This document shows positions 23,484 through 57,047 of a stretch of DNA of 60,684 bases, one piece after another. A program made the translations under genes and the position numbers. The stretch comes from Nitrospirota bacterium (lineage in GTDB: Bacteria > Nitrospirota > Thermodesulfovibrionia > UBA6902). The notes under the pieces are model-generated. The model saw nothing but the letters and a program-made list of their open reading frames with translations, searched no databases and was not told the origin of the DNA. Every line of letters begins with the position of its first letter. Position 1 is the stretch's first letter. The stretch spans positions 1-60,684 of the forward strand of contig JACQXG010000016.1 of NCBI GenBank assembly GCA_016208905.1, given 5' to 3'.

Positions 23484-23861
23484 ATGATAAAAAAAATATT
23501 GATAGTAGATGATTCGCCCATTGCAAGGAAAATGTTGAAAAGCTGTCTGCCAAAAGATCAGGGATATGAATTTACTGAGGCGGGTGACGGCAGGGAAGGT
23601 TTTGAAAAATATAAAGATTTAAAACCCGATGTAACCTTTATGGACTTGACTATGCCGGTTATGACTGGATATGAGGCAATTGAAGCGATAATGAATCATG
23701 ACAAAAACGCCGTAATTATTGTCGTGACAGCCGATGTTCAGATGAAAGCGATCAAAACAGTTATGGAATCAGGCGCCTACATGGTATTAAAGAAGCCGTT
23801 AAAAAGGGAGGAAATTCAGTCTGCCTTATTGAAGGTTAAGGACACATTGCAAAAAGCCTGA
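23484..23861 (+). CDS. single-domain CheY-like response regulator
   Basis: ILIVDDS, phospho-acceptor context VTFMDLTMP, VTAD and LKKP. Confidence 0.85.
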   Translation: MIKKILIVDDSPIARKMLKSCLPKDQGYEFTEAGDGREGFEKYKDLKPDVTFMDLTMPVMTGYEAIEAIMNHDKNAVIIVVTADVQMKAIKTVMESGAYMVLKKPLKREEIQSALLKVKDTLQKA

Positions 23862-23863
23862 AT

Positions 23864-38477: not shown

Positions 38478-38907
38478 AAACAGGACAATATCGAAGATCC
38501 TGAAATTAAAAAGCAGAAAGAAAATGGAACTGGAACTTGAAGTAAAAAAGGCGTCCGACAGGGTTGATGAGGAGAGCTCCAAGCTTCACGGCCTTGAAAA
38601 GGACTACAAGGAAACACTTGAGGTCTTTGCTGATAAAAGCTCTGAAGGCGCTATGAATGCGAGTAATATCAATTCATATTACGATTTTTTTTCACGCATT
38701 AATGGAAAAATAAATGATCAGAAAATAATTCATGATCAGCGTAAAAGCGAGTTGAAATCTGTAAAAAATAACCTTGTCGAGGCGCATAAGGACAAGAAGG
38801 CATTTGAAATATTAAATGATAAGGCGGTCAAAAAGGACATCAGGGAAAAACTGTCATTGGAACAGAAAGAAGCGGATTTTTTCGCAATAACAAGGAGATC
38901 AAAATGA
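38470..38907 (+). CDS. fliJ: flagellar export chaperone FliJ (the ORF track starts at 38452; the ATG at 38470 has a GGAGAAAGAG SD)
   Basis: ~145-aa coiled-coil protein directly after fliI. Called on position and composition only. Confidence 0.65.
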   Translation: MHKNRTISKILKLKSRKKMELELEVKKASDRVDEESSKLHGLEKDYKETLEVFADKSSEGAMNASNINSYYDFFSRINGKINDQKIIHDQRKSELKSVKNNLVEAHKDKKAFEILNDKAVKKDIREKLSLEQKEADFFAITRRSK

Positions 38908-39350
38908 AAAGAGCGGGTCTAATTATATTGGCGGTCATATTTCTGGTCATTAATGCATACGCAGAGGAGGATGTTGCAAGCGTTATCGAAAAACAGCGTA
39001 TTGAACTTAGCAAAAAAGAAGAAATAGTAAAGAAGGAAACAGAAAGGCTTATGACATTAAAAAAAGATGTTGAAGATGACATTGCAAAATATACGCTGCT
39101 TCTTGAACAGATTGATAAATCCCTCAAACAGGCGGAAGAAATCGGCAACAAAAGATTGAAGCATGTATCAAAGGCATATGAGGCAATGCAGCCTGAAGAT
39201 GCCGCTTCAAGGCTTTCAGGTCTTGATAATGAGACAGCGGTCCAGATACTGCTGAAGATGGAAAGCAAAAAAGCCGGCCTTGTAATTGGAATGATGGAAG
39301 CCAGAAAGGCCACGACATTGACGAAAGAGATTGCAAAACTGAAGATGTAA
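38904..39350 (+). CDS. YlxF-like flagellar operon protein with MgtE-N-like segment
   Basis: Signal/anchor helix followed by a coiled coil and MQPEDAASRLSGLDNETAVQILLKMESKKAGLVIGMME. It occupies the same position as ylxF in Bacillus fla/che. Confidence 0.55.
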   Translation: MKRAGLIILAVIFLVINAYAEEDVASVIEKQRIELSKKEEIVKKETERLMTLKKDVEDDIAKYTLLLEQIDKSLKQAEEIGNKRLKHVSKAYEAMQPEDAASRLSGLDNETAVQILLKMESKKAGLVIGMMEARKATTLTKEIAKLKM

Positions 39351-39402: not shown

Positions 39403-41494
39403 GTTTGCCCGGCGGAGCGGGCAAACCCAGTCCCGCAAGGCGGGACGTCGCCCCGATCAGGGGGAAGACAATCCGAATCGCAAGGGCGTTGCCGGCAACA
39501 GCAGGGTCTGAAGGAAGCGATAGGAAGAGAGCGGCACACAGCGCAAGCGAACCTGATACGGTGGCACGGGAGGGCAAGCGTGCAAAAAGGCGTGACGCCC
39601 AGTACCTGATCAAACCCGTGACATGATTGAGGGTGGAGCTGCTCACAGGGAGCCCGCAGTAACCGGGGAAGCCTTACATAGTTCCAACCGGGATTAACCG
39701 GGAAGGATAGGGAGGCCCAAGAGGAGACTCAAGGCTGAGCGAAGCGGTGTAAGGTGGCAGAAGACTCCGTAGTAGTGAAGAAGACCCGGCCTGAGAAAGC
39801 TGGTAACAGACTGGAGGAGAAAACCGGGATGACCCGCAGCGTAGTCTGTGGGGTCTGATGCAAGCCAAAAGCTGTATCAGAATGCGAAGGGAGGAAGTTT
39901 ATTTGAAGGTTTCCGGAAGCTGACCGTGATGTAGTGTTGAACACAAGCCGCCAGACGTGGCGGGAGACCTTATTGGCGGTAATGTTGTTAAAGGCGCTCT
40001 GCTGAAAAGGGTTGTTCGCCGGAGTAACCTGATGCACCGGTTGTAAATTGCCCGAAAGGGATAGAAGGCGACTGAATCAGGAGAAGGACCGAAAGCATGG
40101 CATGCTGGTCAAGTGGAAGGAGACGCAGGAGGGAGCATGACAAGGGTATATTACAGTCTCTATGACAGGATGATATCAGAAGAGAGGCTGCACAAAGCAT
40201 TTCTTAAGGTAAAGACAGCCAAAGGAGCTGCCGGAGTGGACGGGCAGACAATAGAGGACTTTGCCTGTGATTTGCAGAAGAACCTTGAGATGCTTCTAAA
40301 AGAACTGAGGGGAAAGAGCTACAGGCCGCAGCCGGTAAAAAGGGTGGAAATACCCAAAGCCGGAGGTGGAAAGAGGAAGCTCGGAATTCCATCGGTACGA
40401 GACCGGGTAGTACAGCAGGCTTTGTTGGAAATCTTGCAGCCGATATATGACCCTGAGTTTCACCCGTCAAGTTATGGATATCGACCGGGCAGGAGCTGTC
40501 ATCAGGCCATAGCCAAGGCAACGATGTTTATCCGTAACTATGAGAGGCAATGGGTAGTGGACATGGATTTGACGAAGTGTTTCGACACGTTGGATCATGA
40601 CATTATCATAGAGGCCTTTCGTAAACGTGTAACAGACGGGAGCATATTGAAACTGCTGAGGATGTTTTTGCAAAGCGGAGTGATGACAGAAGAGGGATGG
40701 CAGGCGAGTACAGAGGGCAGTCCACAGGGAGGAGTAATCAGCCCTTTGGTTGCGAATGTCTACCTTGATGCATTCGACCAGTATATGAAAAGTCGGAAGC
40801 AACGAATTGTCAGGTATGCTGATGATACACTGATCTTCACCCGGTCAAAGAGTGCGGCGGAGAACGCCCTGAAACAGGCAACACGCTATCTGGAGGGGAA
40901 ATTAAAGCTCACCGTAAATCAGCAGAAGACCCACATCGTGCACAGCAGTGAAGGAGTGAAGTTTTTGGGGGTAGTAATCCGCACAGGCTTCACCGGGATA
41001 CAGGACAAGAAGATACGGGCGTTCAAGGAAAAGGTGAAGAAAATAACCCGGAGGAATTCTCCGGTCAATCTGGGGAAGGTCATAGCTGATCTGAACCCGC
41101 TTGTCCGGGGATTTGCAAATTACTTCAGAATAGCAAACTGCAAAGAGGTATTTAAGGAACTGTCGGGATGGGTCAGAAGACGGCTTAGAGCCAAGCAACT
41201 GGCGTTATGGAAAAAGCCGACGAGGCTTCACCGGAGGCTGAGGCAGCTTGGTTACAGAGGCGAATTCAAGGCAATAAAAATGAATTCGTGGAGAAATGCC
41301 GCAAGTCCTCTGGCCAGCTTTGCGATACCTAACAAATACCTCAGGGAACTCGGACTCTTTGATCTCTGTTCAGTACATACCGGGATTCCTGTCTCGGTTT
41401 AGGAGGGACGAATAAACAGGAGCCGTATACGAGACCCGTACGTACGGTTCTGTGAGAGGGCTAAGGTGAGTTTGATCTGCTCACCTTACCCTAC
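39403..41494 (+). mobile_element. group II intron (RNA domains plus intron-encoded RT/maturase); boundaries approximate
   Basis: A GC-rich block in an AT-rich context begins right after the T-run. The RT ORF lies in domain IV. Domain V-like GAGCCGUAUACGAGACCCGUACGUACGGUUC is at 41420-41450, followed by a domain VI-like hairpin ending ...CCCUAC at 41494. Confidence 0.85.
40137..41402 (+). CDS. group II intron reverse transcriptase/maturase (no endonuclease domain seen)
   Basis: RT motifs (KAGGGKRKLGIPSVRDRVVQQA, YADD as RYADDTLIF) and a maturase X region (LNPLVRGFANYFRIAN). AGGAGGGAGC SD before the ATG at 40137; the track starts at a GTG at 40113. Confidence 0.9.
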   Translation: MTRVYYSLYDRMISEERLHKAFLKVKTAKGAAGVDGQTIEDFACDLQKNLEMLLKELRGKSYRPQPVKRVEIPKAGGGKRKLGIPSVRDRVVQQALLEILQPIYDPEFHPSSYGYRPGRSCHQAIAKATMFIRNYERQWVVDMDLTKCFDTLDHDIIIEAFRKRVTDGSILKLLRMFLQSGVMTEEGWQASTEGSPQGGVISPLVANVYLDAFDQYMKSRKQRIVRYADDTLIFTRSKSAAENALKQATRYLEGKLKLTVNQQKTHIVHSSEGVKFLGVVIRTGFTGIQDKKIRAFKEKVKKITRRNSPVNLGKVIADLNPLVRGFANYFRIANCKEVFKELSGWVRRRLRAKQLALWKKPTRLHRRLRQLGYRGEFKAIKMNSWRNAASPLASFAIPNKYLRELGLFDLCSVHTGIPVSV

Positions 41495-41737
41495 TCGATT
41501 ATGGAAAAGAAGAGAACATTATGCGTTATCGCTGCATGGAAAAACTTTCCCATATCAGAAACATTTTCTATATTATTATCCCGGGCCTCAACTATGAACG
41601 GTTGCCGGTTATCGGCATGCAGCTTTAATTACATTGATAATAAGCCCTTTACTGCTGGTGATGGACACCGGCCGGATCCGGAAAGTTTCTGGCATGCCTC
41701 TTGCTCATTGTCCGGCGTGGACATATTAATTAACAGC

Positions 41738-43204
41738 ATGCCGGAAATGAAAATAACCCCCCGGTCTGATTATTATTCACACTACAAACCTTCTGCTGCA
41801 AAACCAAAATTTGATTCTATAGTCAGGGACGAGCATTTGAAGGCTGCCGGTAATAAATCACGTAAAGAAGATATTCATTATGAAAGCAGGATGAAACAGG
41901 ACGATAGATTGAAAGCGGATGACTCTGCATGCAGTCAATGTTCAGCAGATGTTGAGAATAGAATGAAAGAAATCCGGCAGGATCAAGACCGTCAGAGAAT
42001 TGAAGATGCAGAAACGCAGAGCAGGGACACCAAAGATGCAGAGACTGTAACTGAGTCCGACAATGGTTTGAAGGTTGGGGCATTGTTGAAGGAACTGATA
42101 AACAAGTATGCTGCAGGCGAAGCTGTAACTGAGTCCGGCAATGGTTTGAAGATCGGGGCATTGCTGAATGAACTGATAAACAAGTATGCTGCGGGCGAAG
42201 CGGGGACTGGAACTGATTCTGAAAATGGTTTGAAAATCGGGGCATTGTTGAATGAACTGATAAACAAGTATGCTGCAGGGACTGAAGGTGGGCCTGAACT
42301 CAATGAATTAATAAATATTGAATCAGCCGGAGAAGGGAAGAATCCGAACTCTAAAGACGGCTTAAAGATTGGTCATCTGCTGAATAAGCTGTTTAACCTG
42401 TCAGGTTCAAGTGATCAGGTAAAAGAAGATGTAAGTGCTTTATCGGCTGATCAGGCGATTAAAGTTAAAGCGGAGTCAAACGTTTCTAAAGCTGATACTC
42501 CGCTATTAAAAAAGGAAATGATTGCTCAGGCTGAATTAATAAATGAAGCATTAAGGCAGATGAATAATGTTCAAAGTAATAAAGCTGGTGATCTGAATGT
42601 ACAGGAAAAGAATATCGTCGCTGAAGGACTGAACAATAAACTGATGTCCGGATTATCAGATCAGTTTAATAATGGACACAGTCCGAGAAATGACTCATTT
42701 AATCTTGCAAAGTCTTTATATAATTCAGGGCATGATTCTGCTGCCAATAATATAAATCTTCTTAACAATACAAATACCTCAAGCGATGCAGCAGGATCTA
42801 TCAAACATACCTTATCTGTTAATGCCGCAAAAACACCGGCGTTCAGGGAATTACTGGATAATGTTGTTTATGTGATAAAGGACAATAATAAGATGGGTGT
42901 TACTGTTGAGCATGATAATTTCGGCAAGTTAAATATCAATCTCAGCATGGACAAAGGCATGGTCAATGTTCACATTAATACATCAGACAATGTGGTCAGG
43001 GAGTTCCTTGAAAATAATATACAGCATATTATAGACAGTCTTAATAAGGACGGAGTCAGCGTCGGAGAGTTTTCTATAGCATTAAAGGACAGGAGAGAGA
43101 ACGAGGGGGATGATTTCTCTTTTAACAACGGACAGGTCAATGAACATTTACATGAAACACAAAAAGATCTCCCTGGCAGCGGTCTTGTAAATATTTTTGC
43201 ATGA
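41738..43204 (+). CDS. fliK: flagellar hook-length control protein FliK (the open frame extends upstream to 41501)
   Basis: C-terminal Flg_hook-like domain (GVTVEHDNFGKLNINLSMDKGMVNVHINTSDNVVREFLENNIQHIIDSLNKDGVSVGEF). Polar, repeat-rich middle region. Position before flgD. Confidence 0.7.
   Translation: MPEMKITPRSDYYSHYKPSAAKPKFDSIVRDEHLKAAGNKSRKEDIHYESRMKQDDRLKADDSACSQCSADVENRMKEIRQDQDRQRIEDAETQSRDTKDAETVTESDNGLKVGALLKELINKYAAGEAVTESGNGLKIGALLNELINKYAAGEAGTGTDSENGLKIGALLNELINKYAAGTEGGPELNELINIESAGEGKNPNSKDGLKIGHLLNKLFNLSGSSDQVKEDVSALSADQAIKVKAESNVSKADTPLLKKEMIAQAELINEALRQMNNVQSNKAGDLNVQEKNIVAEGLNNKLMSGLSDQFNNGHSPRNDSFNLAKSLYNSGHDSAANNINLLNNTNTSSDAAGSIKHTLSVNAAKTPAFRELLDNVVYVIKDNNKMGVTVEHDNFGKLNINLSMDKGMVNVHINTSDNVVREFLENNIQHIIDSLNKDGVSVGEFSIALKDRRENEGDDFSFNNGQVNEHLHETQKDLPGSGLVNIFA
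42044..42290 (+). repeat. three tandem 78-84-bp repeats (26-28 aa) in fliK, plus a degenerate fourth to ~42400
   Basis: TESDNGLKVGALLKELINKYAAGE, then TESGNGLKIGALLNELINKYAAGE, then DSENGLKIGALLNELINKYAAG, then a degenerate KDGLKIGHLLNKLFN. Confidence 0.9.
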
Positions 43205-43903: not shown

Positions 43904-45172
43904 ATGGCCCTAACATCATTATTTACAGCAGTCAGCGGAATGAACGCTAATGGTACGGCGCTCTCGGTAATCGGTGATAATATCGCAAATATGAACACAA
44001 TAGGATTCAAGTCCAGCAGGGCGGCTTTTGGAGACATTCTTAGTCAGCAGCTCGGAGAATCACAGGTTGGCCGAGGAGTATTACTGAGCGATGTTAAGCC
44101 GCAATTTACACAGGGCACATTTGAGAATACCGCAAGTGTGCTCGATTTGGCTGTTGACGGAGATGGCCTGTTCATATTAAACGATTCGTCAGGGACTTAT
44201 TACTCAAGGGCCGGGCAGTTCAGCGTTGATAAAAACGGTTATGTGGTAAATTCCGGCGGAATTAATCTGCAGGGCTACTCATTAGACGCATTAGGAAATA
44301 CAAGCGGTCTTGGGGACATCAACGTATCTTCAGTCAATAGTCAGCCTAATGATACCGGCACTGTGACAACATCAGCGAATCTTGACTCAACGGCATCTGC
44401 TATTGCCGGAGGATTTCTCATAACAGATCCCAGCGGCACTTCCAATTTTTCAAGCTCAATCACCGTCTATGACTCTCTTGGAAGCGGACATGTTCTCAAT
44501 GTCTACTTTACGAAAACTGCCGCGAATACCTGGACCTGGAATGCAGTCGTCAATGCCGCTGATTCATTTAGCGGTTCAACGGAAGTACAGGCAAACGGTA
44601 CATTAAACTTTAATTCAAACGGCGCTCTAACCTCTGAAAGCGCTATAACATATCCATTAGGCGGATTTGATTTTACAGGCGGCTCTACCCAGAATCAGAC
44701 TATAGCCTTTGATTTCGGCACCTCAATAGCCGAAAGTGGCACCGGTCTGGACGGCACCACGCAGTATGCTGCTGCTTCTGCCACTTCATTCCAGAACCAG
44801 GATGGTTATTCCTCCGGCTCATTAAAGAGTATAACAATCTCTCAGGATGGAACGATGACAGGTATCTTTACTAATGGACAGACGAGAGGCATTGCCCAGA
44901 TAGCGCTTGCAAAATTTGTTGCTCCTACAGAACTTAATAAGCAGGGGAGAGGTCTCTATGCAGAATCTACCGATTCAGGACAGCCTATAATCAGCACGCC
45001 GGGAACATCAGGCACGGGTACGGTCCTTTCAAATACTCTTGAATTGAGCAATGTAGACCTTGCCGAGGAGTTTGTTAAGATGATCCTGGCCCAGAGAGGC
45101 TTCCAGGCGAATTCAAGGGTCATATCCACATCAGATGAGTTGATGCAGGAACTGGTGAATCTGAAACGGTAA
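43904..45172 (+). CDS. flgE: flagellar hook protein FlgE
   Basis: N-terminal LFTAVSGMNANGTALSVIGDNIANMNT and C-terminal LSNVDLAEEFVKMILAQRGFQANSRVI. Confidence 0.9.
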   Translation: MALTSLFTAVSGMNANGTALSVIGDNIANMNTIGFKSSRAAFGDILSQQLGESQVGRGVLLSDVKPQFTQGTFENTASVLDLAVDGDGLFILNDSSGTYYSRAGQFSVDKNGYVVNSGGINLQGYSLDALGNTSGLGDINVSSVNSQPNDTGTVTTSANLDSTASAIAGGFLITDPSGTSNFSSSITVYDSLGSGHVLNVYFTKTAANTWTWNAVVNAADSFSGSTEVQANGTLNFNSNGALTSESAITYPLGGFDFTGGSTQNQTIAFDFGTSIAESGTGLDGTTQYAAASATSFQNQDGYSSGSLKSITISQDGTMTGIFTNGQTRGIAQIALAKFVAPTELNKQGRGLYAESTDSGQPIISTPGTSGTGTVLSNTLELSNVDLAEEFVKMILAQRGFQANSRVISTSDELMQELVNLKR

Positions 45173-45221: not shown

Positions 45222-45251
45222 AGCAGGGGCACGCTGCAGCGTGCCCCTGCT
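45222..45251. terminator. 13-bp GC-rich hairpin between convergent flgE and the two-CW gene (likely bidirectional terminator)
   Basis: AGCAGGGGCACGC-TGCA-GCGTGCCCCTGCT. A T-rich tail is present only on the minus-strand side. Confidence 0.5.
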
Positions 45252-45277: not shown

Positions 45278-45589
45278 TTATCTGGCGTTAGCGTGATAAA
45301 CCTGTCCTGGTTTTAACAAGACGAAGTTCTCTGAACCTTCTTCAGCTTTGATCTGTTTGAATACTTCACAAGACATGCAGGATACGGATTTTTGTGCAAA
45401 GTCTCCCTGTACTTTACCACCGCAGAATGTACCGGCTATGGCCCAGCATATACGGCCGGCATTTTTCCCGCTGTTAATTCCGGTACACGACGCATCTCTG
45501 GCTGCCGGACAGATTCCGAGTTCACCATTCTTGTTTCCCCCGGGCTCTCTGCCACACCTTTTTATTTCCCAGCAATTTAATCTTGGCAT
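45278..45589 (-). CDS. small cysteine-rich protein with duplicated CW motif (two-CW-domain-like)
   Basis: 103 aa. NCWEIKRCG...ICPA...CTG...RICWAIAGTFCGG...CMSCEVF. AGGGGG SD. Confidence 0.6.
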   Translation of the reverse strand: MPRLNCWEIKRCGREPGGNKNGELGICPAARDASCTGINSGKNAGRICWAIAGTFCGGKVQGDFAQKSVSCMSCEVFKQIKAEEGSENFVLLKPGQVYHANAR

Positions 45590-45854: not shown

Positions 45855-46895
45855 TTACACTGAGTTAATGATCTCTCCTGCGATTTCATCCAGAGGTACG
45901 ATCTTATCTGCATTTCCGGCTTCTATAACTGATCGGGGCATTCCATAAACAATACATGTTTTTTCACTTTCAGCTATTGTTCTGCCGCCTTTATTTTTGA
46001 TTTCTTTCATCCCTTTTGAACCGTCATTTCCAAGTCCTGTAAGAATTACGCCAAGTACATGTCCTGAGAAGTTTTCAACAACTGAAAGCATGAGCAGGTC
46101 AACGGACGGCCTATAGATATATTCACCTCTGCCTTCGGATATTGAAATTGAGGTTTCAGTTAATTTCCTGCGAATAATTTCCATATGGCCTCTGCCGGGA
46201 GCTATATATACTACTCCTTTTTTAATAGGTTCACCGTGTTCGGCCTCTTTGACTTCAACAGCGCTTAGCTGATTTAATCTCTCTGCAAAAGGTCCTGTAA
46301 AAGACGGCGGCATGTGCTGGGCTATAAGAATAGGGACGGGGAAATCTTTCGGGATCATGGTGATTATATTTTGTAATGCCTTGGGACCTCCGGTAGATGA
46401 CCCTATAGCAACAACACTTATTCTCCTATGTGAAATATGCTGGGTTTGTGACGGCATAGCAAGCGGTTTATAAGATTTACGGGCAATGTTTCTAACAAGT
46501 CCTTTTCTGCCGATAGTCTTAATTTTATCAATTAATATTTCTTTGATTTTTATGATGTTTATGGAGAGGTCTGCAAGGTTTTTGGGTATAAAATCGACGG
46601 CCCCGATCTCAAGCGCGTCAAGTGTGGTCTTAGCTCCTTCTGTAGTTATTGAACTGACCATTAATACAGGAAGCGGATATTTTGCCATTATCTGTTTAAG
46701 CGCCTCAATGCCGTTCATCCTTGGCATTTCAACATCAAGTGTAACGATATCCGGCTTCAGCAAGGCTACCTTTTCCACTGCTTCAATGCCATCTCTTGCG
46801 ATGCCTACCACCTGAATCTCAGGGTCAGAAGATATCATGCTGGAGATAGCATTTCTCATAAACCCGGAATCATCAACGATTAAGACCCTGATCAT
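45855..46895 (-). CDS. cheB: chemotaxis response regulator protein-glutamate methylesterase CheB
   Basis: REC domain (IVTLDVEMPRMNG) and a methylesterase domain (GSSTGGPKAL, GLGNDG). Confidence 0.9.
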   Translation of the reverse strand: MIRVLIVDDSGFMRNAISSMISSDPEIQVVGIARDGIEAVEKVALLKPDIVTLDVEMPRMNGIEALKQIMAKYPLPVLMVSSITTEGAKTTLDALEIGAVDFIPKNLADLSINIIKIKEILIDKIKTIGRKGLVRNIARKSYKPLAMPSQTQHISHRRISVVAIGSSTGGPKALQNIITMIPKDFPVPILIAQHMPPSFTGPFAERLNQLSAVEVKEAEHGEPIKKGVVYIAPGRGHMEIIRRKLTETSISISEGRGEYIYRPSVDLLMLSVVENFSGHVLGVILTGLGNDGSKGMKEIKNKGGRTIAESEKTCIVYGMPRSVIEAGNADKIVPLDEIAGEIINSV

Positions 46896-46969: not shown

Positions 46970-47437
46970 TTATAAATGAACAGCTCCGCCTATGAGCTTA
47001 TCAATATCAATAAGTATTATAAGTCTGTCTTTCATCTTTGCTATGCCTTTTATAAACTTGTTGCTGAAATCCGCAGACATAGGAGGAGGCGGATCTATTA
47101 TGCTTTTAGGGACTCTCAGCACTTCGGATACGGAATCTACGATAACTCCATTCGTTATTCCGTTTATTTCCATAATAATAATTCTGGATGTATCGTCTGT
47201 TTGTTTTTCTTTAAAATTGAATTTTTTTCTCAGATTTACAACAGGTATTACTTTACCCCTTAAATTGATAACTCCTTCAACATAGTCCGGTGAATTGGGA
47301 ACTCTCGTTATTTCTGTTATCCTGTTTATTTCCTGAACATTCAGGATGTCTACGGCATATTCCTCATTATTAAGAGTGAATGTAACAAACTGTTGCAGCT
47401 CTTCGTTTGCTACTGCACCATTTCCCGTGGTTTTCAT
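46970..47437 (-). CDS. cheW: chemotaxis coupling protein CheW
   Basis: 155 aa. FVTFTLNNEEYAVDILNVQEI...VINLRGKVIPVVNLR. Confidence 0.9.
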   Translation of the reverse strand: MKTTGNGAVANEELQQFVTFTLNNEEYAVDILNVQEINRITEITRVPNSPDYVEGVINLRGKVIPVVNLRKKFNFKEKQTDDTSRIIIMEINGITNGVIVDSVSEVLRVPKSIIDPPPPMSADFSNKFIKGIAKMKDRLIILIDIDKLIGGAVHL

Positions 47438-47521: not shown

Positions 47522-48760
47522 TTAGAAACCAAAATCATTTAATAGGGCTTCAACGTCAGACTGAGTGACCTTTTCAGCCATTTTTCCTTCGCTGTCAGTC
47601 ATAGCGGCTTGATCTGATCCGGCTGCAACTGCAGTTTTCGCCGGTTCAGTCTTGACCTGCATGCCGAATTTTGTTATTAAAGTAAGCATCTCGACTTCAA
47701 CCTGGTTTACAAGGTCAATTACTTTCTTAATAGTTTGGCCCGTAATATCCTGAAACTGCTGCGCGGTAAGAATTGTAGTCATGTCATTATCCAGTGAGTC
47801 TTTGAAAATTCTGAGATAGTTTACGCTTTCATCATTCCCTTTTAAGTTCTCGACATGTCTCGTAAATTCATTGGACTCTTCAAAATATCTCTCGACTATT
47901 CCCATGGTCTTGTTGGCGGCATCTTCCGTCTTTGTAATGACAAATTGAAGTTTATCAATGGCATTAGGGACATCATCTTTTGTAAGCCTCTGGAGTCCGC
48001 TGTCAATTGAGCCTTTGAATTCCTCAAGAGAGTCATGAAGTTTTCTCGTTATTTTTCCAACTTCCCTGAAAAGACCCGTATCTGTTTCCTTGACTAACTG
48101 TTCGACGATGACCTCCGCCTTTTGATATTCATGGTCTGACAGGGCGTTCATAAAGTTTAATATCATGTTATATGCATTCTGTTTCGGGTCGTTTTGTTTG
48201 ATTTTGTCGCTAAAATACTGCTTCGCGTCATGCATTTCCTTTATAATTACCTTGCCCCCTATAGTATCGATCTCCCTGGTAATTTCAACGCTGTTTCCGT
48301 TATCTGTCTCGTTAACCTCAACAATGGCATCTTCAAAGAGACTCATATCATCAAGGGGAAGCAGTTTTTTTGTATTGAGCAAAACGATGAGTTTATTATT
48401 TAGTTTTGCAACACCCTCTATATTGTCAATGTTATTATTAAAAAAATTCTCGGGGGGCTCAATATCGGATTCATCTGCTTTAACAACGCCGGTAATCCCG
48501 TCAACAATAATACCGAATATGATTTTTCCGGTTGCAAGCACTATTACAGTATTCCCATCGCCTTCACTGGCATATGAATTAAGCAGATATTTCAGATTTA
48601 CTATTGGTATAATGCTTCCTCTCAGGTTTGTAACCCCTTTCACGTATGATGGCAGGTGGGGCAGGGCAGTTATGGAAGGCATACTGATTATTTCGCGGAC
48701 CTTTAAGATAGGAATCATATATTCACTTGAGTTGATATTAAATCCTATAAACTGTTGCAC
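47522..48760 (-). CDS. CheW-domain / CheZ-like phosphatase fusion protein
   Basis: The N-terminal ~140 aa are CheW-like (FIGFNINSSEYMIPILKVREI...VTNLRGSIIPIVNLK). The C-terminal ~220 aa are CheZ-like (GKITRKLHDSLEEF, AQQFQDITGQTIKKVIDLV, and the terminal DVEALLNDFGF). Confidence 0.8.
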   Translation of the reverse strand: MQQFIGFNINSSEYMIPILKVREIISMPSITALPHLPSYVKGVTNLRGSIIPIVNLKYLLNSYASEGDGNTVIVLATGKIIFGIIVDGITGVVKADESDIEPPENFFNNNIDNIEGVAKLNNKLIVLLNTKKLLPLDDMSLFEDAIVEVNETDNGNSVEITREIDTIGGKVIIKEMHDAKQYFSDKIKQNDPKQNAYNMILNFMNALSDHEYQKAEVIVEQLVKETDTGLFREVGKITRKLHDSLEEFKGSIDSGLQRLTKDDVPNAIDKLQFVITKTEDAANKTMGIVERYFEESNEFTRHVENLKGNDESVNYLRIFKDSLDNDMTTILTAQQFQDITGQTIKKVIDLVNQVEVEMLTLITKFGMQVKTEPAKTAVAAGSDQAAMTDSEGKMAEKVTQSDVEALLNDFGF

Positions 48761-48775
48761 GGAAACCTCCTGAAT

Positions 48776-50389
48776 TTATGATACGGTTTCACTATTACCA
48801 TTATTGACCTTGAAATTGGCAATCACAGACTTAAGCTCCTCGGAAAGCACATTTAATTCTTTTGTTGTTCCGAAGTATTCCTGGGCTATATCCGCAGTCC
48901 GCTGGTTTTCATCGAATATCTGCTGCAGGTTGGAAGAAACGTCTTCACCTGTAGAGCTTTGCTGTCTGGCAGATTCAGCGATCTGCTGTACCATATCCAT
49001 TACGTTTTGGACTGAACCCATTATTTGCTTTAAGGAATCATCAGCCTGATTTGCCAGCTTAACTCCTTCCTCAACTTCTTTGGTCGCAGATTGCATGGAT
49101 TCCACCGCATTTCTTGTCTCTTCCTGGATATGTTTTATCATGTCTCCAATTTCTTTGGTGGCTGATGTCGTTCTCTCAGCCAATTTCCTGACCTCATCTG
49201 CAACTACTGCAAAACCCCTTCCCTGTTCTCCCGCGCGTGCCGCCTCAATTGCTGCATTCAATGCAAGCAGATTGGTCTGGTTGGCTATATCGTTTATTAC
49301 CTTAATAATTTCACCGATTTGTTCAGATCTCTCTCCCAGTATTGTAATGGTGCCTGCAGATCTGTTTACTGATTGAGATATTTTATTCATGCCGTTAATA
49401 GTCTCGGCGACAACAGTGCCGCCTCTGGTTGCCAGTTCTGCGGCTTCTGTTGCGGATTTGGCTGCGTTGGTAGAGTTTCTGGTCACGTCGTATACTACAA
49501 TACTCATCATTTCGACGGCGCTGGCAACTTTGCCTGTATTTTCTACTTGTATTCTTGTATCTTTACTTATAATTTCAGAAGAGGACAATAAATTATCTGC
49601 AAAGGAAGATAATTTATTTATTGTAGATTTGATTTTAATGACGATGTTGGTTAAATTATATTTTACATTATTTAAAGAGTCACCGAATTTCTCAAGTTCA
49701 TCATGGGTCGTAACATTTATATTACGGGCAGTTAAATCTCCTTTAGAAATTGCCTGGGCAATCTCAACAATTTTATCAACAGAACTGCCATAGTCCCTGT
49801 GAGTCAGGTAAACTGCAGCGATAACTGAAAGGACTGTCAATATAGTTATTAATAAAATGAAATACCTTGATCCGAGCGAGGACTTTCTGATTGTCAGTAT
49901 GTTTTCCATTAACAAATTGTGCTTAATATGATAAAACCCATTGATTTTGTCCTCCGCTTTATTGATGATTTCAGTCAACTCGCTGCCGGCATTCGTTATG
50001 GCCTGCTCAGATGAGTTAGTTAATAACGGTTTTGACCTCTCAAAATATTGCTGGAACAGTCTTTCGATTTCACTTATCCTTTTGTCTTCTGAAAGGTCTT
50101 TTAAATTCTTTAAAGCTGATTCAATCTGCTCCCGGTTCTCAAGGAGCTTTTGCATTTCAACGACAGATGCAGTTTTAACAGCGTCTTTGGATTTCGCAAG
50201 GTACTGGATCAGAAAATGTGATTCAGCTACTTCAGGGGAGCTTTCTGTAAGGCGCAGGACATTCGAATTATAAAAAAATGTCCCCACTGTAATCAGGCCT
50301 ATCAATAAAGAAAATGGAATTATTCCTATCAAAAGTTTTTTTCTGATACTGATTGCAAAATTGCCGATAAAAGGAATATCAAATTTCAC
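48776..50389 (-). CDS. methyl-accepting chemotaxis protein
   Basis: GTG start. Two TM helices flank a ~150-aa sensor region. A HAMP domain is followed by the conserved signalling hairpin ([38 protein letters not shown]). Confidence 0.9.
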
Positions 50390-50479: not shown

Positions 50480-52324
50480 TTAACCTTTTCCCGATCCCAG
50501 AAGATTTCTTGACATACCGGTAACGTCAAGGATGAATACAACTTTCCCGTCGCCGGTTATTGTTGCTCCAAGTACGTTAGACGACGTCGTGTCTATTCCG
50601 TCGAGTGTTTTTATAACTACTTCCTCCTGTCCAAGAAGTTTGTCGACTGCAATACAGAACCTTTTATCACCCAAGGCAATAACTACAATGTATTTATGAT
50701 CTGACTCGTTTTCTTCATGTCCGTTATATCTGTTGCCAAGGAGGCTGTTTAATTCGAATAAAGGACATATTTTATCACGTATAACTATTACGTTCTGGCC
50801 TGTAATATTATTAATTTCCTTTTTTGAGATCTTAAGAGTTTCTTCGATGGGTGAAAGAGGGATTGCGTATTTACATCCTGAAACCTCGACCATTAATGCC
50901 TGAATTATCGCCAGGGTCAGAGGAATACATATTCTAAATGTTGTACCCACATTTTTTTCAGTTGATATTTCAACATACCCGTTCAGAAGGGATATATTGG
51001 TCTTTACAACGTCCATGCCGACACCGCGGCCGCTGAGTTCTGTTGCTACTTCTTTGGTAGAAAATCCCGGCATAAAAATAATTTCAGTGGCAGCATCGTC
51101 AGACATTTTATTTGCCTCTTCTTCAGTCAAGAGACCTTTTTCAACGGCTTTTCTCTTTAGATTTTCTACATCCATGCCTTTTCCGTCATCTGAAATTTCA
51201 ATAACGATCTGGTTGCCCTTCTGAAATATGTTTATTATGATTTTACCCTTAGCAGGCTTGCCCTTGGCCAAGCGTTCTTCGGTGGGTTCAAGGCCGTGGT
51301 CCAGGGAGTTCCTCATTATATGTGTTAAAGGGTCTCCAATATGCTCAATGACTGATTTGTCAACCTCTGTACCTTCACCGTAAATTATCAGCTCAACATC
51401 TTTGTTGACGGAAGCAGACATGTCTCTTACAAGTCTCGGGAATTTAGAGAGGACTTTTTTAATGGGCTGCATACGTATTTTCATTACAGCGAGCTGCAAA
51501 TCTGAAGTAACTCTATCCAGGAATGACACGGTCTCCATCAGTGTCTCGGTTTGTGAATCATTCGAATATTTCTGGTCAAAGTAATTGGATATATTTAAGA
51601 GCCTGTTTCTGACCAGGACCACTTCACCTGCAAGGTCCATTACCTTGTCTATCCGTTCAATATCTACTCTTAAATTATGCGCTGTGTCCTTTGGTTTCTG
51701 CGCAGCTTCCTTTAATTTTTGGTCCTCCGGAAGAGAGGCCTGCACTTTTTCTTCGGATTCTTGCATGGCGCTATCGGCAGCAACGGTAATGTCAGGCCTG
51801 GGTTTGGGCTCTTCAGACGTCTGAACGATAGCAGCGGTCAATTGTTCCGCAGTCTCAGATGATCTGATTTCCTGAGCTGCGGTCCCAACCGGGTCTGCTT
51901 TTTGTGCCGCTTCTCCGATTCCGCCGGAAACAGATATGGCATTATTTAAAGCAGATTCCAATTCTTTAACCAGGGGAGCAACATTTTCTTCAATACCATC
52001 TTTATTTTTTAAATGCGCAAGCAGCAGTTTAAGCATATCAACGGATTTAAGAATCACGTCCATTATCTTTTTTGATATTGATATTTCCCCTTCTCTGAGT
52101 TTCTTCATTATATTTTCAGATGTATGAGCTACATCTACTATTGGTTGAAAACCCAGGAAACCTGCAGCGCCTTTGATGGTGTGCATAGACCTGAAAATAT
52201 CATTAAGAAGTTCCTTGTCCTCACCTTTTTGCTCAAGCTCAACAAATAATGGCTCTATCCTGTCAAGGGATTCCTCCGCTTCCGTAATGAACTCGGATAT
52301 TATTTCTTCCATTTCATCATTCAT
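50480..52324 (-). CDS. cheA: chemotaxis histidine kinase CheA (ATG at 52324 after GGAG; the track starts at 52342)
   Basis: Hpt domain HTIKGAAGFLG, HATPase domain (DDGKGMD, GRGVGMD) and a C-terminal CheW-like P5 domain. Confidence 0.9.
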   Translation of the reverse strand: MNDEMEEIISEFITEAEESLDRIEPLFVELEQKGEDKELLNDIFRSMHTIKGAAGFLGFQPIVDVAHTSENIMKKLREGEISISKKIMDVILKSVDMLKLLLAHLKNKDGIEENVAPLVKELESALNNAISVSGGIGEAAQKADPVGTAAQEIRSSETAEQLTAAIVQTSEEPKPRPDITVAADSAMQESEEKVQASLPEDQKLKEAAQKPKDTAHNLRVDIERIDKVMDLAGEVVLVRNRLLNISNYFDQKYSNDSQTETLMETVSFLDRVTSDLQLAVMKIRMQPIKKVLSKFPRLVRDMSASVNKDVELIIYGEGTEVDKSVIEHIGDPLTHIMRNSLDHGLEPTEERLAKGKPAKGKIIINIFQKGNQIVIEISDDGKGMDVENLKRKAVEKGLLTEEEANKMSDDAATEIIFMPGFSTKEVATELSGRGVGMDVVKTNISLLNGYVEISTEKNVGTTFRICIPLTLAIIQALMVEVSGCKYAIPLSPIEETLKISKKEINNITGQNVIVIRDKICPLFELNSLLGNRYNGHEENESDHKYIVVIALGDKRFCIAVDKLLGQEEVVIKTLDGIDTTSSNVLGATITGDGKVVFILDVTGMSRNLLGSGKG

Positions 52325-52348
52325 TATATAGTCTCCATACAATGCTTC

Positions 52349-52744
52349 TTACTGCTGCGCCTGAAGTCTTTCAATTATTTTGTCCATCTTTTCCTTTAAA
52401 ACTTCCCCTGTAAATGGTTTAACAATATAATTGTTGACGCCTGCCTGAATGGCGGTAATGACTTTTTCTTTTTCAGCCTCTGCAGTAACCATAAGAATGG
52501 GCAGCCCTTTCAGTTCAGGATCGCTTCGTACCGCTTTTATAAGTTCAAGACCATCCATATTAGGCATGTTCCAGTCGCTGACGACAAAGCCATATCCTCC
52601 ATTTTTTAACTTTGAAAATGCCTGGGCCCCGTCTTCAGCCTCATCAATGTTAGAATATCCAATTTGTCTTAGAAGGTTTTTTACAATTCTTCTCATTGTT
52701 GAAAAATCATCGACTACGAGTACTTTAATGCTTAAATCAGCCAT
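52349..52744 (-). CDS. cheY: chemotaxis response regulator CheY
   Basis: [35 protein letters not shown] and YIVKPF are canonical CheY residues. Confidence 0.9.
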
Positions 52745-53129
52745 GTTGAATTCCTCCTTTGGTGAAAATCTGTTTTATGATGTCCTTAATATTTTGCGCA
52801 ATTGCGTCTCCTGTTACAGGTTTTACCAGATACCCGTTTGCCCCGTTACTGTAAGCCTTCTTTCTCTCTATCTCATCATTTTCAGTTGTAACCATCAGGA
52901 TAGGGATATCTGATAAATTAGGATCTGAACGCAGGGTTTTTATTAATTCCATACCGTCCATATAAGGCATGTTAAGATCTGTGAGAATAAGATTGACCGT
53001 GTCTGCCCCAAGTTTTTCCAGGGCATCGAGGCCATTTTCAGCAAACACTACGGAATAGCCCCTGGATTTCAAATAATGTCCGAGCAGTTTTCTTGTAGTT
53101 TGACAATCGTCTACAATCATTATTTTCAT
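52737..53129 (-). CDS. second single-domain CheY-like response regulator
   Basis: [22 protein letters not shown] and YLVKP. The gene overlaps cheY by 8 nt. Confidence 0.85.
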
Positions 53130-53199: not shown

Positions 53200-54024
53200 T
53201 CATACCTTCTGATACATAATGACTTTATCTATTACGCAGGGCCTGAAAGCCCTTGTCACATTATGAAGACTTTCTGAGGAACCGATTAATAAATAGCCCC
53301 CGGGATTTAAACTGTCATAAAGATTTGAAACCACTTTCTGTTTTGACTTGGTATCAAAGTATATAAGTACATTCCGGCAGAAAATAATATCCATCCCGCG
53401 AAATGATTTTAAATTCTTATTGTCTATAAGATTGGCCTTCATGAATTTGACAGTGTTTTTGACGGAAGCATTCAGGGTATAGGACTGGCCGCTGATTGTA
53501 AAATATTTTTTATGATAGGATTCAGGTATATTTCTCACTGAATAAGAATTGTAAATAGCCCTCTTTGCAGACTCTAAAACCCCTGTGCTCAGGTCTGATG
53601 CTAAAATCTCAAATTGATTAGTTGATAAATGCTTTTCCATAAGCATCATAGAAATTGTATAAGGCTCTTCCCCCGTGGAACATGCAGCCGACCATATTCT
53701 TATGTTTTTAACACCCTTCTTTTGTTCAAACACTTTCGGGAAAATACTTTCGGAAAATACGTTTAATTGTTGAGGTTCCCTGAAGAAGTAAGTTTCATTA
53801 GTGGTTACGGCGTCAAAAAGCCTTGTGAGTTCATCTCCGTTTGGGCTGAATTTTAACAGCTTGATATAATCTTCAAAGCTGTTAAGTTTTTTTTCCTGTA
53901 GTATTCTTGAAAGCCTGTTTTCAATCAGATATTTTTTGCTATCGCTTACATAGATGCCACTATTATCATATATATAGTCTCTGAGATCTCTAAATGATGA
54001 TTCGGAAATGTGTATATTTAACAT
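53200..54024 (-). CDS. cheR: chemotaxis protein methyltransferase CheR
   Basis: TNETYFFRE, IWSAACSTGEEPYT and IFCRNVLIYF. Confidence 0.9.
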   Translation of the reverse strand: MLNIHISESSFRDLRDYIYDNSGIYVSDSKKYLIENRLSRILQEKKLNSFEDYIKLLKFSPNGDELTRLFDAVTTNETYFFREPQQLNVFSESIFPKVFEQKKGVKNIRIWSAACSTGEEPYTISMMLMEKHLSTNQFEILASDLSTGVLESAKRAIYNSYSVRNIPESYHKKYFTISGQSYTLNASVKNTVKFMKANLIDNKNLKSFRGMDIIFCRNVLIYFDTKSKQKVVSNLYDSLNPGGYLLIGSSESLHNVTRAFRPCVIDKVIMYQKV

Positions 54025-55442
54025 GTGTACCCCGAATTCAATTCTGATGTGAACTTTGTGGCCATCTCGCGAATATTATCATTTAATTCATTTATGCGCG
54101 ATAAAAATAAATCGGGATTTATATTTATTAGCGCATTTATGAATTCATCGATAACGTCATTATATTTTTCATTTTGCAGCATCTTCATAAGAGGCTCAAA
54201 GGCCGTCATGTCTCCTATTTTTCCAAGGCTGCTTACAGCCGTTTTCCTGACATGGCTGTCGGGATCGGCAATTGCCTCCATGAGGCAGTTTTTTGCCTCG
54301 TCGCTCTCTATTTGGCTGAGTGATTTTATGCTTGATCTTCTAACATCCCTGTAATCGCTTTTCAAAAGATCAATTAGAATCGTCACTGCATTTTTGCATT
54401 TCAGATCGCCGATTATTTCAATAGCTGCGACTTTTCCCCGATATTTGACGGAGGCATCATTAAGCAGATCTATGAGTGAGGATGTGCATCCTAAACCATA
54501 AATAGCTTCCTTGATAATAGTCAGTTTATCTTCGCTTTCAGGATCGGAGAGATCAAGTGAACCGGCCGCGTCAATCATATGATAAATAGCGGTCTCGTCT
54601 TTTAGCGCTGCGAGTCCTTTAATTGCAGTAAATTTCTCATCCCAGTCATCGTCCGCTAACATATCAATAAGTGCATCTGATACTCCCGGCATTGAAGGAA
54701 CAGTTCCTATTTGGACAAGACTTCTTATGGCCGCCTTTTTTTCAAATCCTTCTGCCCTTGATATATGATCTGAAATGGACTGGACTGCATTATGAGAGCC
54801 GATTTTCCCAAGGGCTTCAATAGCTGCATATCTTATTGTCTCAGAAGGACTGTTCAAGAGATCAACAATAGAGCTTATCGCTTCTTCTTCTTTTAAATCG
54901 ATAAGGGCTTCGAGCGCTGAGAAACAAACCCACTCTTCATCTTTTAAGGCGGCTGTGAGTTGCGGTAAGGCTTTTTTTAACTGCAGCCTGCCTATTGTTT
55001 TTGCGGCTGCTGCACGTACATTCGCATTCGTGTCGCCTGTGAGCATTTCAACCAGTTTTTCAGGATAACTGCATTGTTGAATATCATGTATAAGATCCAG
55101 AGCAAATTTTCTTACATCATCATCTCTGTCATTCAAAAGAATTTGCAGCAGCGGAACGGTAATTGTGCCCATCTCTCTTAAGATTAATATTGCGGTGTTT
55201 CTCAGGAAGGAGTTTTCCCGCAGAAGCGGCAGCACCATATATGCGGTAGTTTCCCCTTTTATGTTCATTAGGGAGCGCATTGCCGCATCCTGTACTCCAA
55301 AATTATCATCTCGCAGCGCCTTGATCAACGGATAGACGGCCCTTTCATCGCCATCTGAAAGGGCTTCTGCAGCAGAACGCCTCTTTGAGGCATCTTCATC
55401 AGTGATATCTCTTAATAATTTATTAAGTCTTGCTGTATGCAT
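54018..55442 (-). CDS. HEAT (PBS-lyase-type) repeat protein, first gene of the che operon
   Basis: At least 10 repeats of the form D-x-D/N-x-x-VR-x-x-A-x-x-AL. It overlaps the cheR start by 7 nt. Confidence 0.75.
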   Translation of the reverse strand: MHTARLNKLLRDITDEDASKRRSAAEALSDGDERAVYPLIKALRDDNFGVQDAAMRSLMNIKGETTAYMVLPLLRENSFLRNTAILILREMGTITVPLLQILLNDRDDDVRKFALDLIHDIQQCSYPEKLVEMLTGDTNANVRAAAAKTIGRLQLKKALPQLTAALKDEEWVCFSALEALIDLKEEEAISSIVDLLNSPSETIRYAAIEALGKIGSHNAVQSISDHISRAEGFEKKAAIRSLVQIGTVPSMPGVSDALIDMLADDDWDEKFTAIKGLAALKDETAIYHMIDAAGSLDLSDPESEDKLTIIKEAIYGLGCTSSLIDLLNDASVKYRGKVAAIEIIGDLKCKNAVTILIDLLKSDYRDVRRSSIKSLSQIESDEAKNCLMEAIADPDSHVRKTAVSSLGKIGDMTAFEPLMKMLQNEKYNDVIDEFINALININPDLFLSRINELNDNIREMATKFTSELNSGYTC

Positions 55443-55585: not shown

Positions 55586-55749
55586 GTAACTATTCAGGTG
55601 GATAGTCTGAAGGTGTTTAGTCTATTAGCAACTGGAAAATACCAACAGTAGGCGCGTTAGTCGCTGGATGAGGCACGCTTTGTACCCTTAGTTCCGATTG
55701 TTTTTTGCTAACAGACTACAGTCTAATAGACTACAACCTGAGTAGTTAC
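55586..55749. repeat. 164-bp element with 14-bp terminal inverted repeats, copy 2
   Basis: Left GTAACTATTCAGGT (55586-55599), right ACCTGAGTAGTTAC (55736-55749). The sub-terminal sequences match 30968-31090 and the centre differs. Confidence 0.8.
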
Positions 55750-57047
55750 GCGCATTCAATATTTGCGCACTCATTAAGCGTGTCATTCTCGCTCTTGACC
55801 TGATTCCTGCCGGACCTCTTGGCAAGGTAGAGGGCGCTGTCGGCCCTTTCAAATACAGTATTGCCGTTATCTCCCTTCCTGAAGGCGCTGACTCCTACAC
55901 TTATAGTAAGGGAGATTTTTTGATTTTTATAGGAAAAGACGGACTTGTCAATATAAGAGCGAATGCCTTCCCCGGCCAGTGTTGCCCCGTTTAAATCCGT
56001 ATGCGGAAGGATAACTGCAAATTCTTCTCCGCCGTATCTGGATACGAAATCATTTATTCTGAGTCTCTCTTTAAGCAGTGAGGCGAGTTTTTTCAGGGCA
56101 AGGTCCCCGACATTATGGCCGTATGTATCATTTATTTTTTTAAAAAAGTCTATATCACAGATCATCAGAGAAGCGGGGACATTATAACGCTCAAAATTGG
56201 CAAGTGTTTCTATCATTCTTTGATCATATGCCCTCCGATTATATATACCTGTAAGATTGTCCTGAAATGTTTCGACTTCCAGCTCCTGGGACCGCTTTCT
56301 TATATCATCGGCTTCACGTTTAATTTCCAACATGCGCTTGCTCATCTTCTCAAGAGTGTTCTCAGTCTCTTTCAAACGCTGCATGTCCCGGTCTCTTTTT
56401 ATTTCGATTCCCCGGTTAATATTCTCTATTTTGCTCATAAGCGCCATCTTAACCGAATTGAAATCATTGGAGTTATTTATATTGTTTTTTATGTAACCCA
56501 TGTTTTCAGATATATTATCTTCAAAGATTCTGTCATCTTTTAATCTTTGATGCTGCGAAGTCGATTCACTTATTATATTCCCTTCAGTTTCTGCAAGATA
56601 ATTCATCGTCTGCTGAATGAAGTTCTCAAGATCGCTGTTCCGGAGAACAAGGGAGTCTATATATTTCCTGACAATTTTAATCGGCGAATCTAACCATTCC
56701 CGGGAACCGCCAGCGATCTCTTTATTATGAAGCTTTTCTTTCAGGTCACTGAGTTTTTCTGTTATGGAAGAGGGCATAAGATCAGTGAGTCTGCCCAGGA
56801 GAGTGTTGGACAACTCTTTCAGACAGTCTGGCTCTATTTCTTCTTTTGAAGCAGTGCCCCTGTTAACAAACAGTAAATTTTTGACTGAATCTCTCCAGAT
56901 CATCTTTTCGGCTATGGCCTTGCCGCTTATCTGCTTTTTATTCTCCAGGGACAATTCCTTTAAGATACTAAGAACTTCATCTGCCATAACGTAAACTTTT
57001 TCCTCAAATTCTATATTTGCGTCAGTAAGATTAATCTCCTGATTCAT
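55746..57047 (-). CDS. GGDEF diguanylate cyclase with long coiled-coil N-terminal region
   Basis: RIND I-site followed by GGEEF. GIYNRR and ALYLAKRSGRN are present. The stop codon lies inside the TIR of the adjacent element. Confidence 0.85.
   Translation of the reverse strand: MNQEINLTDANIEFEEKVYVMADEVLSILKELSLENKKQISGKAIAEKMIWRDSVKNLLFVNRGTASKEEIEPDCLKELSNTLLGRLTDLMPSSITEKLSDLKEKLHNKEIAGGSREWLDSPIKIVRKYIDSLVLRNSDLENFIQQTMNYLAETEGNIISESTSQHQRLKDDRIFEDNISENMGYIKNNINNSNDFNSVKMALMSKIENINRGIEIKRDRDMQRLKETENTLEKMSKRMLEIKREADDIRKRSQELEVETFQDNLTGIYNRRAYDQRMIETLANFERYNVPASLMICDIDFFKKINDTYGHNVGDLALKKLASLLKERLRINDFVSRYGGEEFAVILPHTDLNGATLAGEGIRSYIDKSVFSYKNQKISLTISVGVSAFRKGDNGNTVFERADSALYLAKRSGRNQVKSENDTLNECANIECA

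Follow-up and report, generated by a model that had tools for sequence, protein, structure and literature searches.

A CheW adaptor domain joined to a long-form CheZ phosphatase in a chemotaxis operon of Nitrospirota

The contig JACQXG010000016.1 of a Nitrospirota bacterium (assembly GCA_016208905.1; class Thermodesulfovibrionia, UBA6902), analysed here over positions 1-60,684 (hereafter the window), carries a chemotaxis operon on its minus strand, in which an open reading frame (ORF) at 47522-48760 codes for parts of two chemotaxis proteins, CheW and CheZ. In the single polypeptide that it encodes, a CheW adaptor domain and a long-form CheZ, both complete, are connected by a short linker. Judged from its sequence, this CheW-CheZ fusion is probably a phosphatase of phosphorylated CheY (CheY-P) that is covalently docked in the receptor-kinase array. 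The preliminary description of this stretch, drawn up from the letters alone, had already proposed a fusion of the two proteins, and this proposal is borne out by Pfam, by phmmer, by the motifs found and by the presence of both Pfam domains in one and the same reading frame.

In chemotaxis, the CheY-P gradient depends on where the phosphatase is located with respect to the kinase, and so do the speed and the noise of the response. Enteric CheZ is localised through its apical-loop residues Phe97 and Trp98, which bind CheA-short; other bacteria rely on ChePep (epsilon-proteobacteria) or on a CheA-independent route (alpha-proteobacteria, A. caulinodans) (PMC7750401). A covalent CheW-CheZ fusion would represent a fourth and the most direct way of localising CheZ, fixing the position of the phosphatase as well as its ratio to the kinase. 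The conservation of the fusion throughout a bacterial class, magnetotactic Nitrospirota and culturable Thermodesulfovibrio included, provides a natural test of the co-localisation hypothesis, and anyone wishing to engineer where the phosphatase sits in E. coli arrays has in this protein a template ready for use. The earlier view that this fusion had not been characterised holds in so far as no functional study of a CheW-CheZ protein was found in the full-text literature (Wuichet & Zhulin 2010 was not covered); the architecture as such, however, is already recorded in databases, under names such as 'protein phosphatase CheZ' (RefSeq), CheW/CheZ (JGI) and 'CheW-like domain-containing protein'. 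In a preprint, one sentence lists fusions of CheW-like domains to CheZ under the rare architectures (fewer than 40 sequences) that were left unanalysed (bioRxiv 10.1101/2022.05.07.491035). The architecture hence appears to be catalogued yet uncharacterised.

Domain architecture of the fusion protein

The CheW family model of Pfam (PF01584) matches residues 3-134 (E = 2.9e-32; 111.6 bits against a cut-off of 23.5), in line with the CheW-like domain first placed at residues ~1-140, and phmmer aligns residues 2-149 with E. coli CheW (PDB 2ho9; E = 4.9e-25). For the C-terminal half, homology to CheZ is strongly backed by the corresponding profile (PF04344; E = 9.4e-36; 124 bits against a gathering cut-off of 30.7). 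In the phmmer alignment with E. coli CheZ (1KMI chain Z), residues 230-295 of the fusion correspond to CheZ residues 17-79 and residues 327-412 to residues 132-214, with no alignment found for the intervening E. coli residues 80-131. The preliminary description had let the alignment with E. coli CheZ begin at residue ~190; the homology itself stands, but the likeness to the E. coli protein starts near residue 230. Hereby, D338 aligns with the catalytic D143 and Q342 with Q147 of E. coli CheZ. All three motifs quoted at the outset are present, i.e. GKITRKLHDSLEEF at residues 235-248, FQDITGQ at residues 336-342 and DVEALLNDFGF at residues 402-412. The NCBIfam equivalog models for CheW and CheZ likewise match, with scores far under their full-length cut-offs, as is expected for a divergent two-domain protein.

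Conservation was followed in three alignments, namely a family alignment (A1), an alignment of 13 distant fusion clusters (A2) and an alignment of 78 fusion sequences covering two clades (A3). The CheW domain aligns with residues 17-158 of E. coli CheW, the C-terminal LLxxxEM segment included. It is followed by a fusion-specific linker, in which the motif VE(V/I)xREIxTIGGK is conserved in both Nitrospirota fusion clades (A1, A3); across the distant fusions, the length of this linker varies. In a Pfam scan of residues 134-233 at E ≤ 10, only two weak matches were obtained (E ~0.01, under the cut-offs of both families), and the alignment comparison revealed no counterpart of residues 143-171 in unfused CheZ relatives. 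These unfused long-form CheZ proteins, found in Thermodesulfobacteriota and related groups (259-270 residues, e.g. P0363), are 31-35% identical to residues 141-412 of the fusion and share its N-terminal extension, catalytic motif and C-terminal peptide. Since they align from residue ~172 to the end, the fusion divides into CheW (residues 1-142), linker (143-171) and CheZ (172-412). Apart from lacking the CheW domain and the linker, the unfused proteins differ from the fusion in an apical hairpin that is about 11 residues longer.

Structure prediction with AlphaFold2 (AF2) gave a predicted local distance difference test score (pLDDT) of 58.8 with 20 close homologues and a mean of 67.3 with the 78-sequence two-clade alignment. 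By region, pLDDT reaches 75-86 in the CheW domain and 78-87 in the hairpin (residues 270-350), and it falls below 50 in the linker. In the CheZ half, helices are predicted at residues 192-208 and 212-225 of the N-terminal extension; the core then comprises, in the AF2 monomer model, the N-helix with GKITRKLHDSLEEF and a long helical hairpin (helices 229-304 and 310-364). The catalytic DxxxQ motif is invariant in A1, A2 and A3, that is in the 78 fusions and in the 13 distant fusion clusters. At the very C-terminus, beyond a variable tether, the CheY-binding peptide QSDVEALLNDFGF is predicted to form a helix (residues 400-409). Among the 78 fusions, Q400 and L407 of this peptide are invariant, and D402, V403, L406, F410, G411 and F412 are nearly so.

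Occurrence and integrity of the fusion gene

A search of ~5.8 billion proteins returned 1324 matches. The best 120 of these are 59-82% identical to the query, measure ~398-420 residues and contain both Pfam domains without exception; the named ones come from Nitrospirota assemblies. A species-level scan (GTDB, one genome per species) with alignment A1 yielded 369 loci; the same scan with a single-protein query, which relies on back-translated exact peptides and has a close-relative reach, found no relatives. The best 80 loci match residues 1-412 or 3-412, with one match ending at residue 371 at a contig end, and almost all belong to the Nitrospirota class Thermodesulfovibrionia. More distant members were detected by an exhaustive search of cluster representatives, which provided at least 13 clusters of full-length fusions with 30-48% identity, some of them no more than 33% identical to the query; Pfam finds both domains in all ten distant representatives tested. 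A second fusion clade takes in the magnetotactic 'Candidatus Magnetobacterium' and 'Ca. Magnetoovum', and one distant cluster is labelled Thermodesulfobacteriota. Cultured carriers are Thermodesulfovibrio thiophilus, T. aggregans and T. hydrogeniphilus, along with a RefSeq 'MULTISPECIES' entry; CP070788.1 and OY760142.1 are complete genomes with the fusion. The census thus reveals a real fusion with at least 120 full-length two-domain homologues and hundreds of metagenome proteins.

As a side observation, the metagenome-assembled genome SURF_45 contains two complete operons of the order HEAT-cheR-cheY-cheY-cheA-cheWZ-cheW-cheB (L003 on QZJG01000015.1 and L007 on QZJG01000016.1), the fusion proteins of which show identities of 75% and 67% to the query. 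Either a duplicated system or a mixed bin could account for this.

The preliminary description had named a sequencing or assembly frameshift joining two genes as a possible source of error. This is excluded by the finding that CheW and CheZ share one uninterrupted ORF in 78 of the 80 species-level loci and in cultured Thermodesulfovibrio. Of the remaining two, L022 lies at a contig start and lacks all but the final ~50 codons of the CheW part, and in L059 the gene runs past a contig end. The fusion gene has its own ribosome-binding site (Table 1), and the stop codon of the upstream gene for a methyl-accepting chemotaxis protein (mcp) lies at 48776-48778, 15 nucleotides ahead of the fusion start. 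Internal starts that would give a free CheZ, comparable to the origin of CheA-short, were considered and rejected: M139 is not conserved (36 Met, 19 Leu and 10 Ile among the 78 fusions), and at M176 the alignment consensuses read Leu, with Met recurring there in some unfused CheZ relatives.

Proposed array docking, mode of action and alternatives

The interface residues of E. coli CheW, as listed in a review (PMC13098124, 2026), were mapped onto the fusion and onto the 78 fusion sequences. Hereby, the receptor-contact residues I33, L34, V36, E38, I39, V108 and R62 of E. coli CheW correspond to I18, L19, V21, E23, I24, V92 and R47 of the fusion; I18, E23, I24 and R47 are invariant in all 78 sequences, and at least 74 of them also share L19, V21 and V92. 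In interface 1 with the P5 domain of CheA, the residues T46, P52, N60, G63, P67 and E155 (E. coli numbering) are retained in most of the 78 fusions, E155 as Asp, and the hydrophobic character of V58, I65, M156 and L158 is kept. A Foldseek search with the predicted CheW domain retrieved E. coli CheW from the core signalling unit with template modelling (TM) scores of 0.82-0.87 and root-mean-square deviations (rmsd) of 2.1-2.9 Å (6s1k_C: E = 1.3e-14, TM 0.82; 8c5v_E: TM 0.87, rmsd 2.1 Å); CheA P5 domains are also among the matches. As the residues contacting receptor and P5 are kept and the predicted fold matches CheW, the initial suggestion that the phosphatase is hard-wired into the array gains support.

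The fused CheW domain, the stand-alone CheW of the operon and E. coli CheW show pairwise identities of 38-39%. With values this even, the fused domain is unlikely to stem from a recent copy of the neighbouring cheW; they imply that the fusion is old and that its adaptor part is a full CheW and no degenerate copy. Across relatives, the conservation of the fused CheW domain is similar to that of stand-alone CheW and higher than that of the CheZ half. Competence for array binding is also favoured by the 53 related loci that extend for 7 kb or more to both sides of the fusion gene: a stand-alone cheW lies directly downstream of the fusion in 13, elsewhere in the locus in 14 and nowhere in the locus in 26.

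In the mode of action which we propose, the CheW domain would occupy CheW positions in the lattice of receptor, CheA and CheW by binding the receptor tip and CheA P5, and the helical bundle of CheZ would thereby be kept directly under the kinase. CheZ would probably dimerise as in E. coli, resulting in a molecule with two CheW domains. The flexible tail could then catch CheY-P via the C-terminal peptide, upon which the DxxxQ site (D338, Q342) would dephosphorylate it. Kinase and phosphatase would thus be co-localised at a ratio set by the gene itself. The likely main substrate, as far as sequence comparison can tell, is CheY2 of the same operon. Its identity to E. coli CheY amounts to 64% (127 residues), which is unusually high for a Nitrospirota protein and makes it a suitable partner for a phosphatase of the CheZ type.

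The CheZ half resembles E. coli CheZ (1KMI) in its phosphatase family, in the catalytic Asp and Gln, in the N-helix motif GxxTRxLxDSL and in the succession of a long helical hairpin, as predicted here, a flexible tether and a C-terminal CheY-binding peptide. The presumed outcome, a phosphatase placed beside the kinase, would be the same as well. In contrast to the E. coli protein, which is localised via CheA-short, the fusion would be localised covalently via its N-terminal CheW domain; in addition, its CheZ part has an extra N-terminal helical extension of ~60 residues. The predicted apical loop (residues 300-312, TRHVENLKGNDES; NLKGNDES) contains no aromatic residue and thus lacks the Phe97/Trp98 pair, so that the enteric CheA-short mechanism is not expected in the fusion. 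CheZ of H. pylori with ChePep and CheZ of A. caulinodans are likewise localised independently of CheA-short (PMC7750401); they make use of a separate partner or of the CheZ N-helix and act independently of the array, whereas the fusion would use a CheW domain on the same chain.

Compared to E. coli CheW (2ho9, 6s1k, 8c5v), the adaptor part shows 38% identity over the whole domain and shares the fold, the receptor-binding and most of the P5-binding residues and the R62-E38 pair; it differs in carrying an enzyme of ~270 residues at its C-terminus and in the residues of interface 2 and of the CheW-ring interface. The nearest design analogue is CheV, a CheW domain joined to a phosphorylatable receiver domain, in which, as proposed for the fusion, the CheW-like domain docks an accessory module acting on phosphoryl flow into the array. 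The module of CheV is a receiver and not a phosphatase, and Pfam finds no Response_reg match in the fusion.

Several points weigh against a docked phosphatase. The AF2 model is only moderately confident (mean pLDDT 67.3) and uninformative on the relative placement of the two domains. Foldseek against the PDB returned no CheZ (1KMI) for the helical half, and the CheZ assignment therefore rests on sequence profiles and motif conservation; long coiled hairpins generally match poorly in Foldseek. Interface 2, which extends the array (R117, E121 and F122 in E. coli), is not conserved in the fusions; the stand-alone CheW of the same organism also differs at these positions. As this stand-alone cheW adjoins the fusion gene in the window, the scaffold role does not have to fall to the fusion in this case. 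Finally, receptor and CheA binding, dimerisation and phosphatase activity are all ascribed to the fusion by homology.

Many relatives have no cheW in the cluster besides the fusion, and there the fusion protein may additionally serve as the cognate coupling protein; this raises the question whether an array can be built wholly from phosphatase-bearing adaptors. The fuller version of this idea, in which the fusion would act as the cognate coupling protein of the baseplate and its phosphatase output would respond to the state of the receptor via the CheW domain and the linker, is prompted by the loci without cheW and by the conservation of the linker, and we regard it as doubtful. If it were true, each core signalling unit would have a built-in phosphatase at a fixed stoichiometry, with the CheZ dimer bridging two CheW sites, and the array would be a bifunctional kinase/phosphatase machine. 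To our knowledge, such an array has not been described for any chemosensory system.

A related and equally unlikely explanation takes the CheW domain mainly as a sensor rather than an anchor, with conformational signals from the receptor or from CheA P5 switching CheZ through CheW and the linker, so that the array would control kinase and phosphatase both, in the manner of bifunctional sensor kinases. CheZ is not known to be controlled allosterically by way of its N-terminus. The preservation of the linker motif in both fusion clades would be unexpected for a passive tether, yet the same segment is predicted with low confidence and is variable in length among the distant fusions. The salt bridge R62-E38, which joins the receptor-binding and the kinase-binding site of CheW (PMC3828127), is invariant in the form of R47 and E23 and would suit a sensory role; such a role still requires binding to the array, however, and would extend the docking of the phosphatase rather than replace it.

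Somewhat less probable still is that the operon drives a non-flagellar output, such as cyclic di-GMP (c-di-GMP) signalling or development, in which case the fusion would end the signalling of a response regulator not directed at the motor. Genes for c-di-GMP turnover abound in the window (13615-14859, 19914-21491, 24505-25407 and 55746-57047), and the operon itself contains two CheY paralogues together with unusual conserved accessory genes (HEAT-repeat, two-CW). Against these features stand the close resemblance of CheY2 to the motor-binding E. coli CheY, the convergence of the operon on flgE at the end of the flagellar cluster and the presence of the fusion family in motile magnetotactic Nitrospirota and in Thermodesulfovibrio. 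That the fusion is an artefact of frameshift or mis-assembly, or a decaying pseudogene with one dead half, can practically be dismissed, as no evidence in its favour was found besides the two of 80 loci lacking a clean continuous ORF (L022, L059), the same architecture occurs in hundreds of independent assemblies, complete chromosomes and isolates among them, catalytic and interface residues are invariant with both halves under strong purifying selection, and the gene has a ribosome-binding site of its own and no conserved internal Met.

The chemotaxis operon and its surroundings

The operon reads, on the minus strand, HEAT-repeat gene, cheR, cheY1, cheY2, cheA, mcp, cheW-cheZ, cheW, cheB and a gene for a two-CW-domain protein (Table 1). 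Its genes overlap or are separated by short gaps, and the sole strong terminator-like hairpin follows the last gene (45222-45251). The order HEAT-cheR-cheY-cheY-cheA-fusion recurs in every related locus that reaches far enough; the fusion gene sits there either straight after cheA or after one inserted mcp, the latter in only 6 of the 80 loci, and cheB comes next, with or without an intervening cheW.

Table 1. Coordinates of the CheW-CheZ fusion gene, its parts and the other genes of the chemotaxis operon in the window
Feature	Position	Strand	Basis and remarks
HEAT-repeat protein gene (474 aa, PBS-lyase-like)	54018..55442	minus	Pfam HEAT_2; head of the operon, 7-nt overlap with cheR
cheR	53200..54024	minus	Pfam
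cheY1, more divergent single-domain response regulator	52737..53129	minus	Pfam; phmmer against E. coli CheY, E ~1e-25
cheY2	52349..52744	minus	Pfam; phmmer against CheY of 1djm and 1kmi, E = 4.5e-54
cheA	50480..52342	minus	Pfam: Hpt (13-104), dimerisation (224-289), HATPase, CheW-like P5
mcp	48776..50389	minus	Pfam MCPsignal and HAMP; between cheA and the fusion gene
Ribosome-binding site AGGAGG	48766..48771	minus	Direct sequence reading; 5 nt ahead of the fusion GTG
cheW-cheZ fusion gene	47522..48760	minus	ORF list; 412 aa, GTG start, stop codon 47522-47524
CheW domain, residues 1-142	48335..48760	minus	Pfam, phmmer, Foldseek, conserved interface residues
Fusion-specific linker, residues 143-171	48248..48334	minus	Kept in alignments A1 and A3; pLDDT <50
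N-terminal helical extension of long-form CheZ, residues 172-230	48071..48247	minus	Aligns with the N-termini of unfused CheZ
CheZ core, residues 231-365	47666..48070	minus	Pfam CheZ, phmmer against 1KMI_Z, AF2
Catalytic DxxxQ motif, D338-I-T-G-Q342	47735..47749	minus	1KMI_Z alignment
Variable, probably disordered tether, residues 366-399	47564..47665	minus	pLDDT 26-53; poorly conserved in A1-A3
C-terminal CheY-binding peptide, residues 400-412	47525..47563	minus	Aligns with the C-terminus of E. coli CheZ to residue 214
Stand-alone cheW	46970..47437	minus	Pfam, 140.3 bits; 39% identical to the fused CheW domain
cheB (receiver and methylesterase)	45855..46895	minus	Pfam
Two-CW-domain gene (103 aa, cysteine-rich)	45278..45589	minus	NCBIfam 'two-CW domain', 104 bits against a cut-off of 35

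In all related loci of sufficient length, the HEAT-repeat gene precedes cheR, and its product is probably an uncharacterised component of the chemosensory system. At the other end, the two-CW gene is the last gene of the operon; in 14 of the most closely related loci it likewise comes after cheB, with 73-86% identity. For CheA, Pfam detected no P2 (CheY-binding) domain, and residues 105-223 have the appearance of a linker of low complexity with many Ala, Glu, Gln and Pro residues.

The further signalling genes claimed for the window, i.e. a canonical CheW, two CheY paralogues and a CheC-type phosphatase, are all present, the last one as a CheC/CheX-family protein with two ExxN-x22-P motifs (23864-24508, plus strand). 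The coexistence of two phosphatase families, as put forward in the preliminary description, is correct in that both are encoded in the window; the CheC-type gene, however, belongs to a separate operon, and no evidence of a shared pathway was found. It forms a three-gene module on the plus strand (23484-25407) with a single-domain receiver (23484-23861) and a PAS-GGDEF diguanylate cyclase (24505-25407), which suggests a CheC-type phosphatase tied to c-di-GMP signalling, apart from the chemotaxis operon. Further genes related to c-di-GMP encode a protein of the DUF3391-HD-GYP type (13615-14859, plus strand) and a REC-GGDEF-HD protein (19914-21491, plus strand), and a gene for a GGDEF protein (55746-57047, minus strand) flanks the chemotaxis operon.

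On its downstream side, the chemotaxis operon faces the flagellar hook gene flgE (43904-45172) in convergent orientation; with flgE ends a flagellar cluster that extends from ~32.7 to 45.2 kb. A 148-residue ORF in this cluster (38904-39350, plus strand) gives a weak, sub-threshold match to FlbB, the flagellar collar protein of spirochaetes (31 bits against a cut-off of 110). The cluster also contains a group II intron (39489-41402, plus strand), which is located between fliJ with the small FlbB-like ORF (38452-39350) and fliK (41501-43204); it is recognised by Rfam (group-II-D1D4-3 at 39489-39657, 60.5 bits), and the Rfam match is followed by an ORF for a reverse transcriptase/maturase at 40113-41402.

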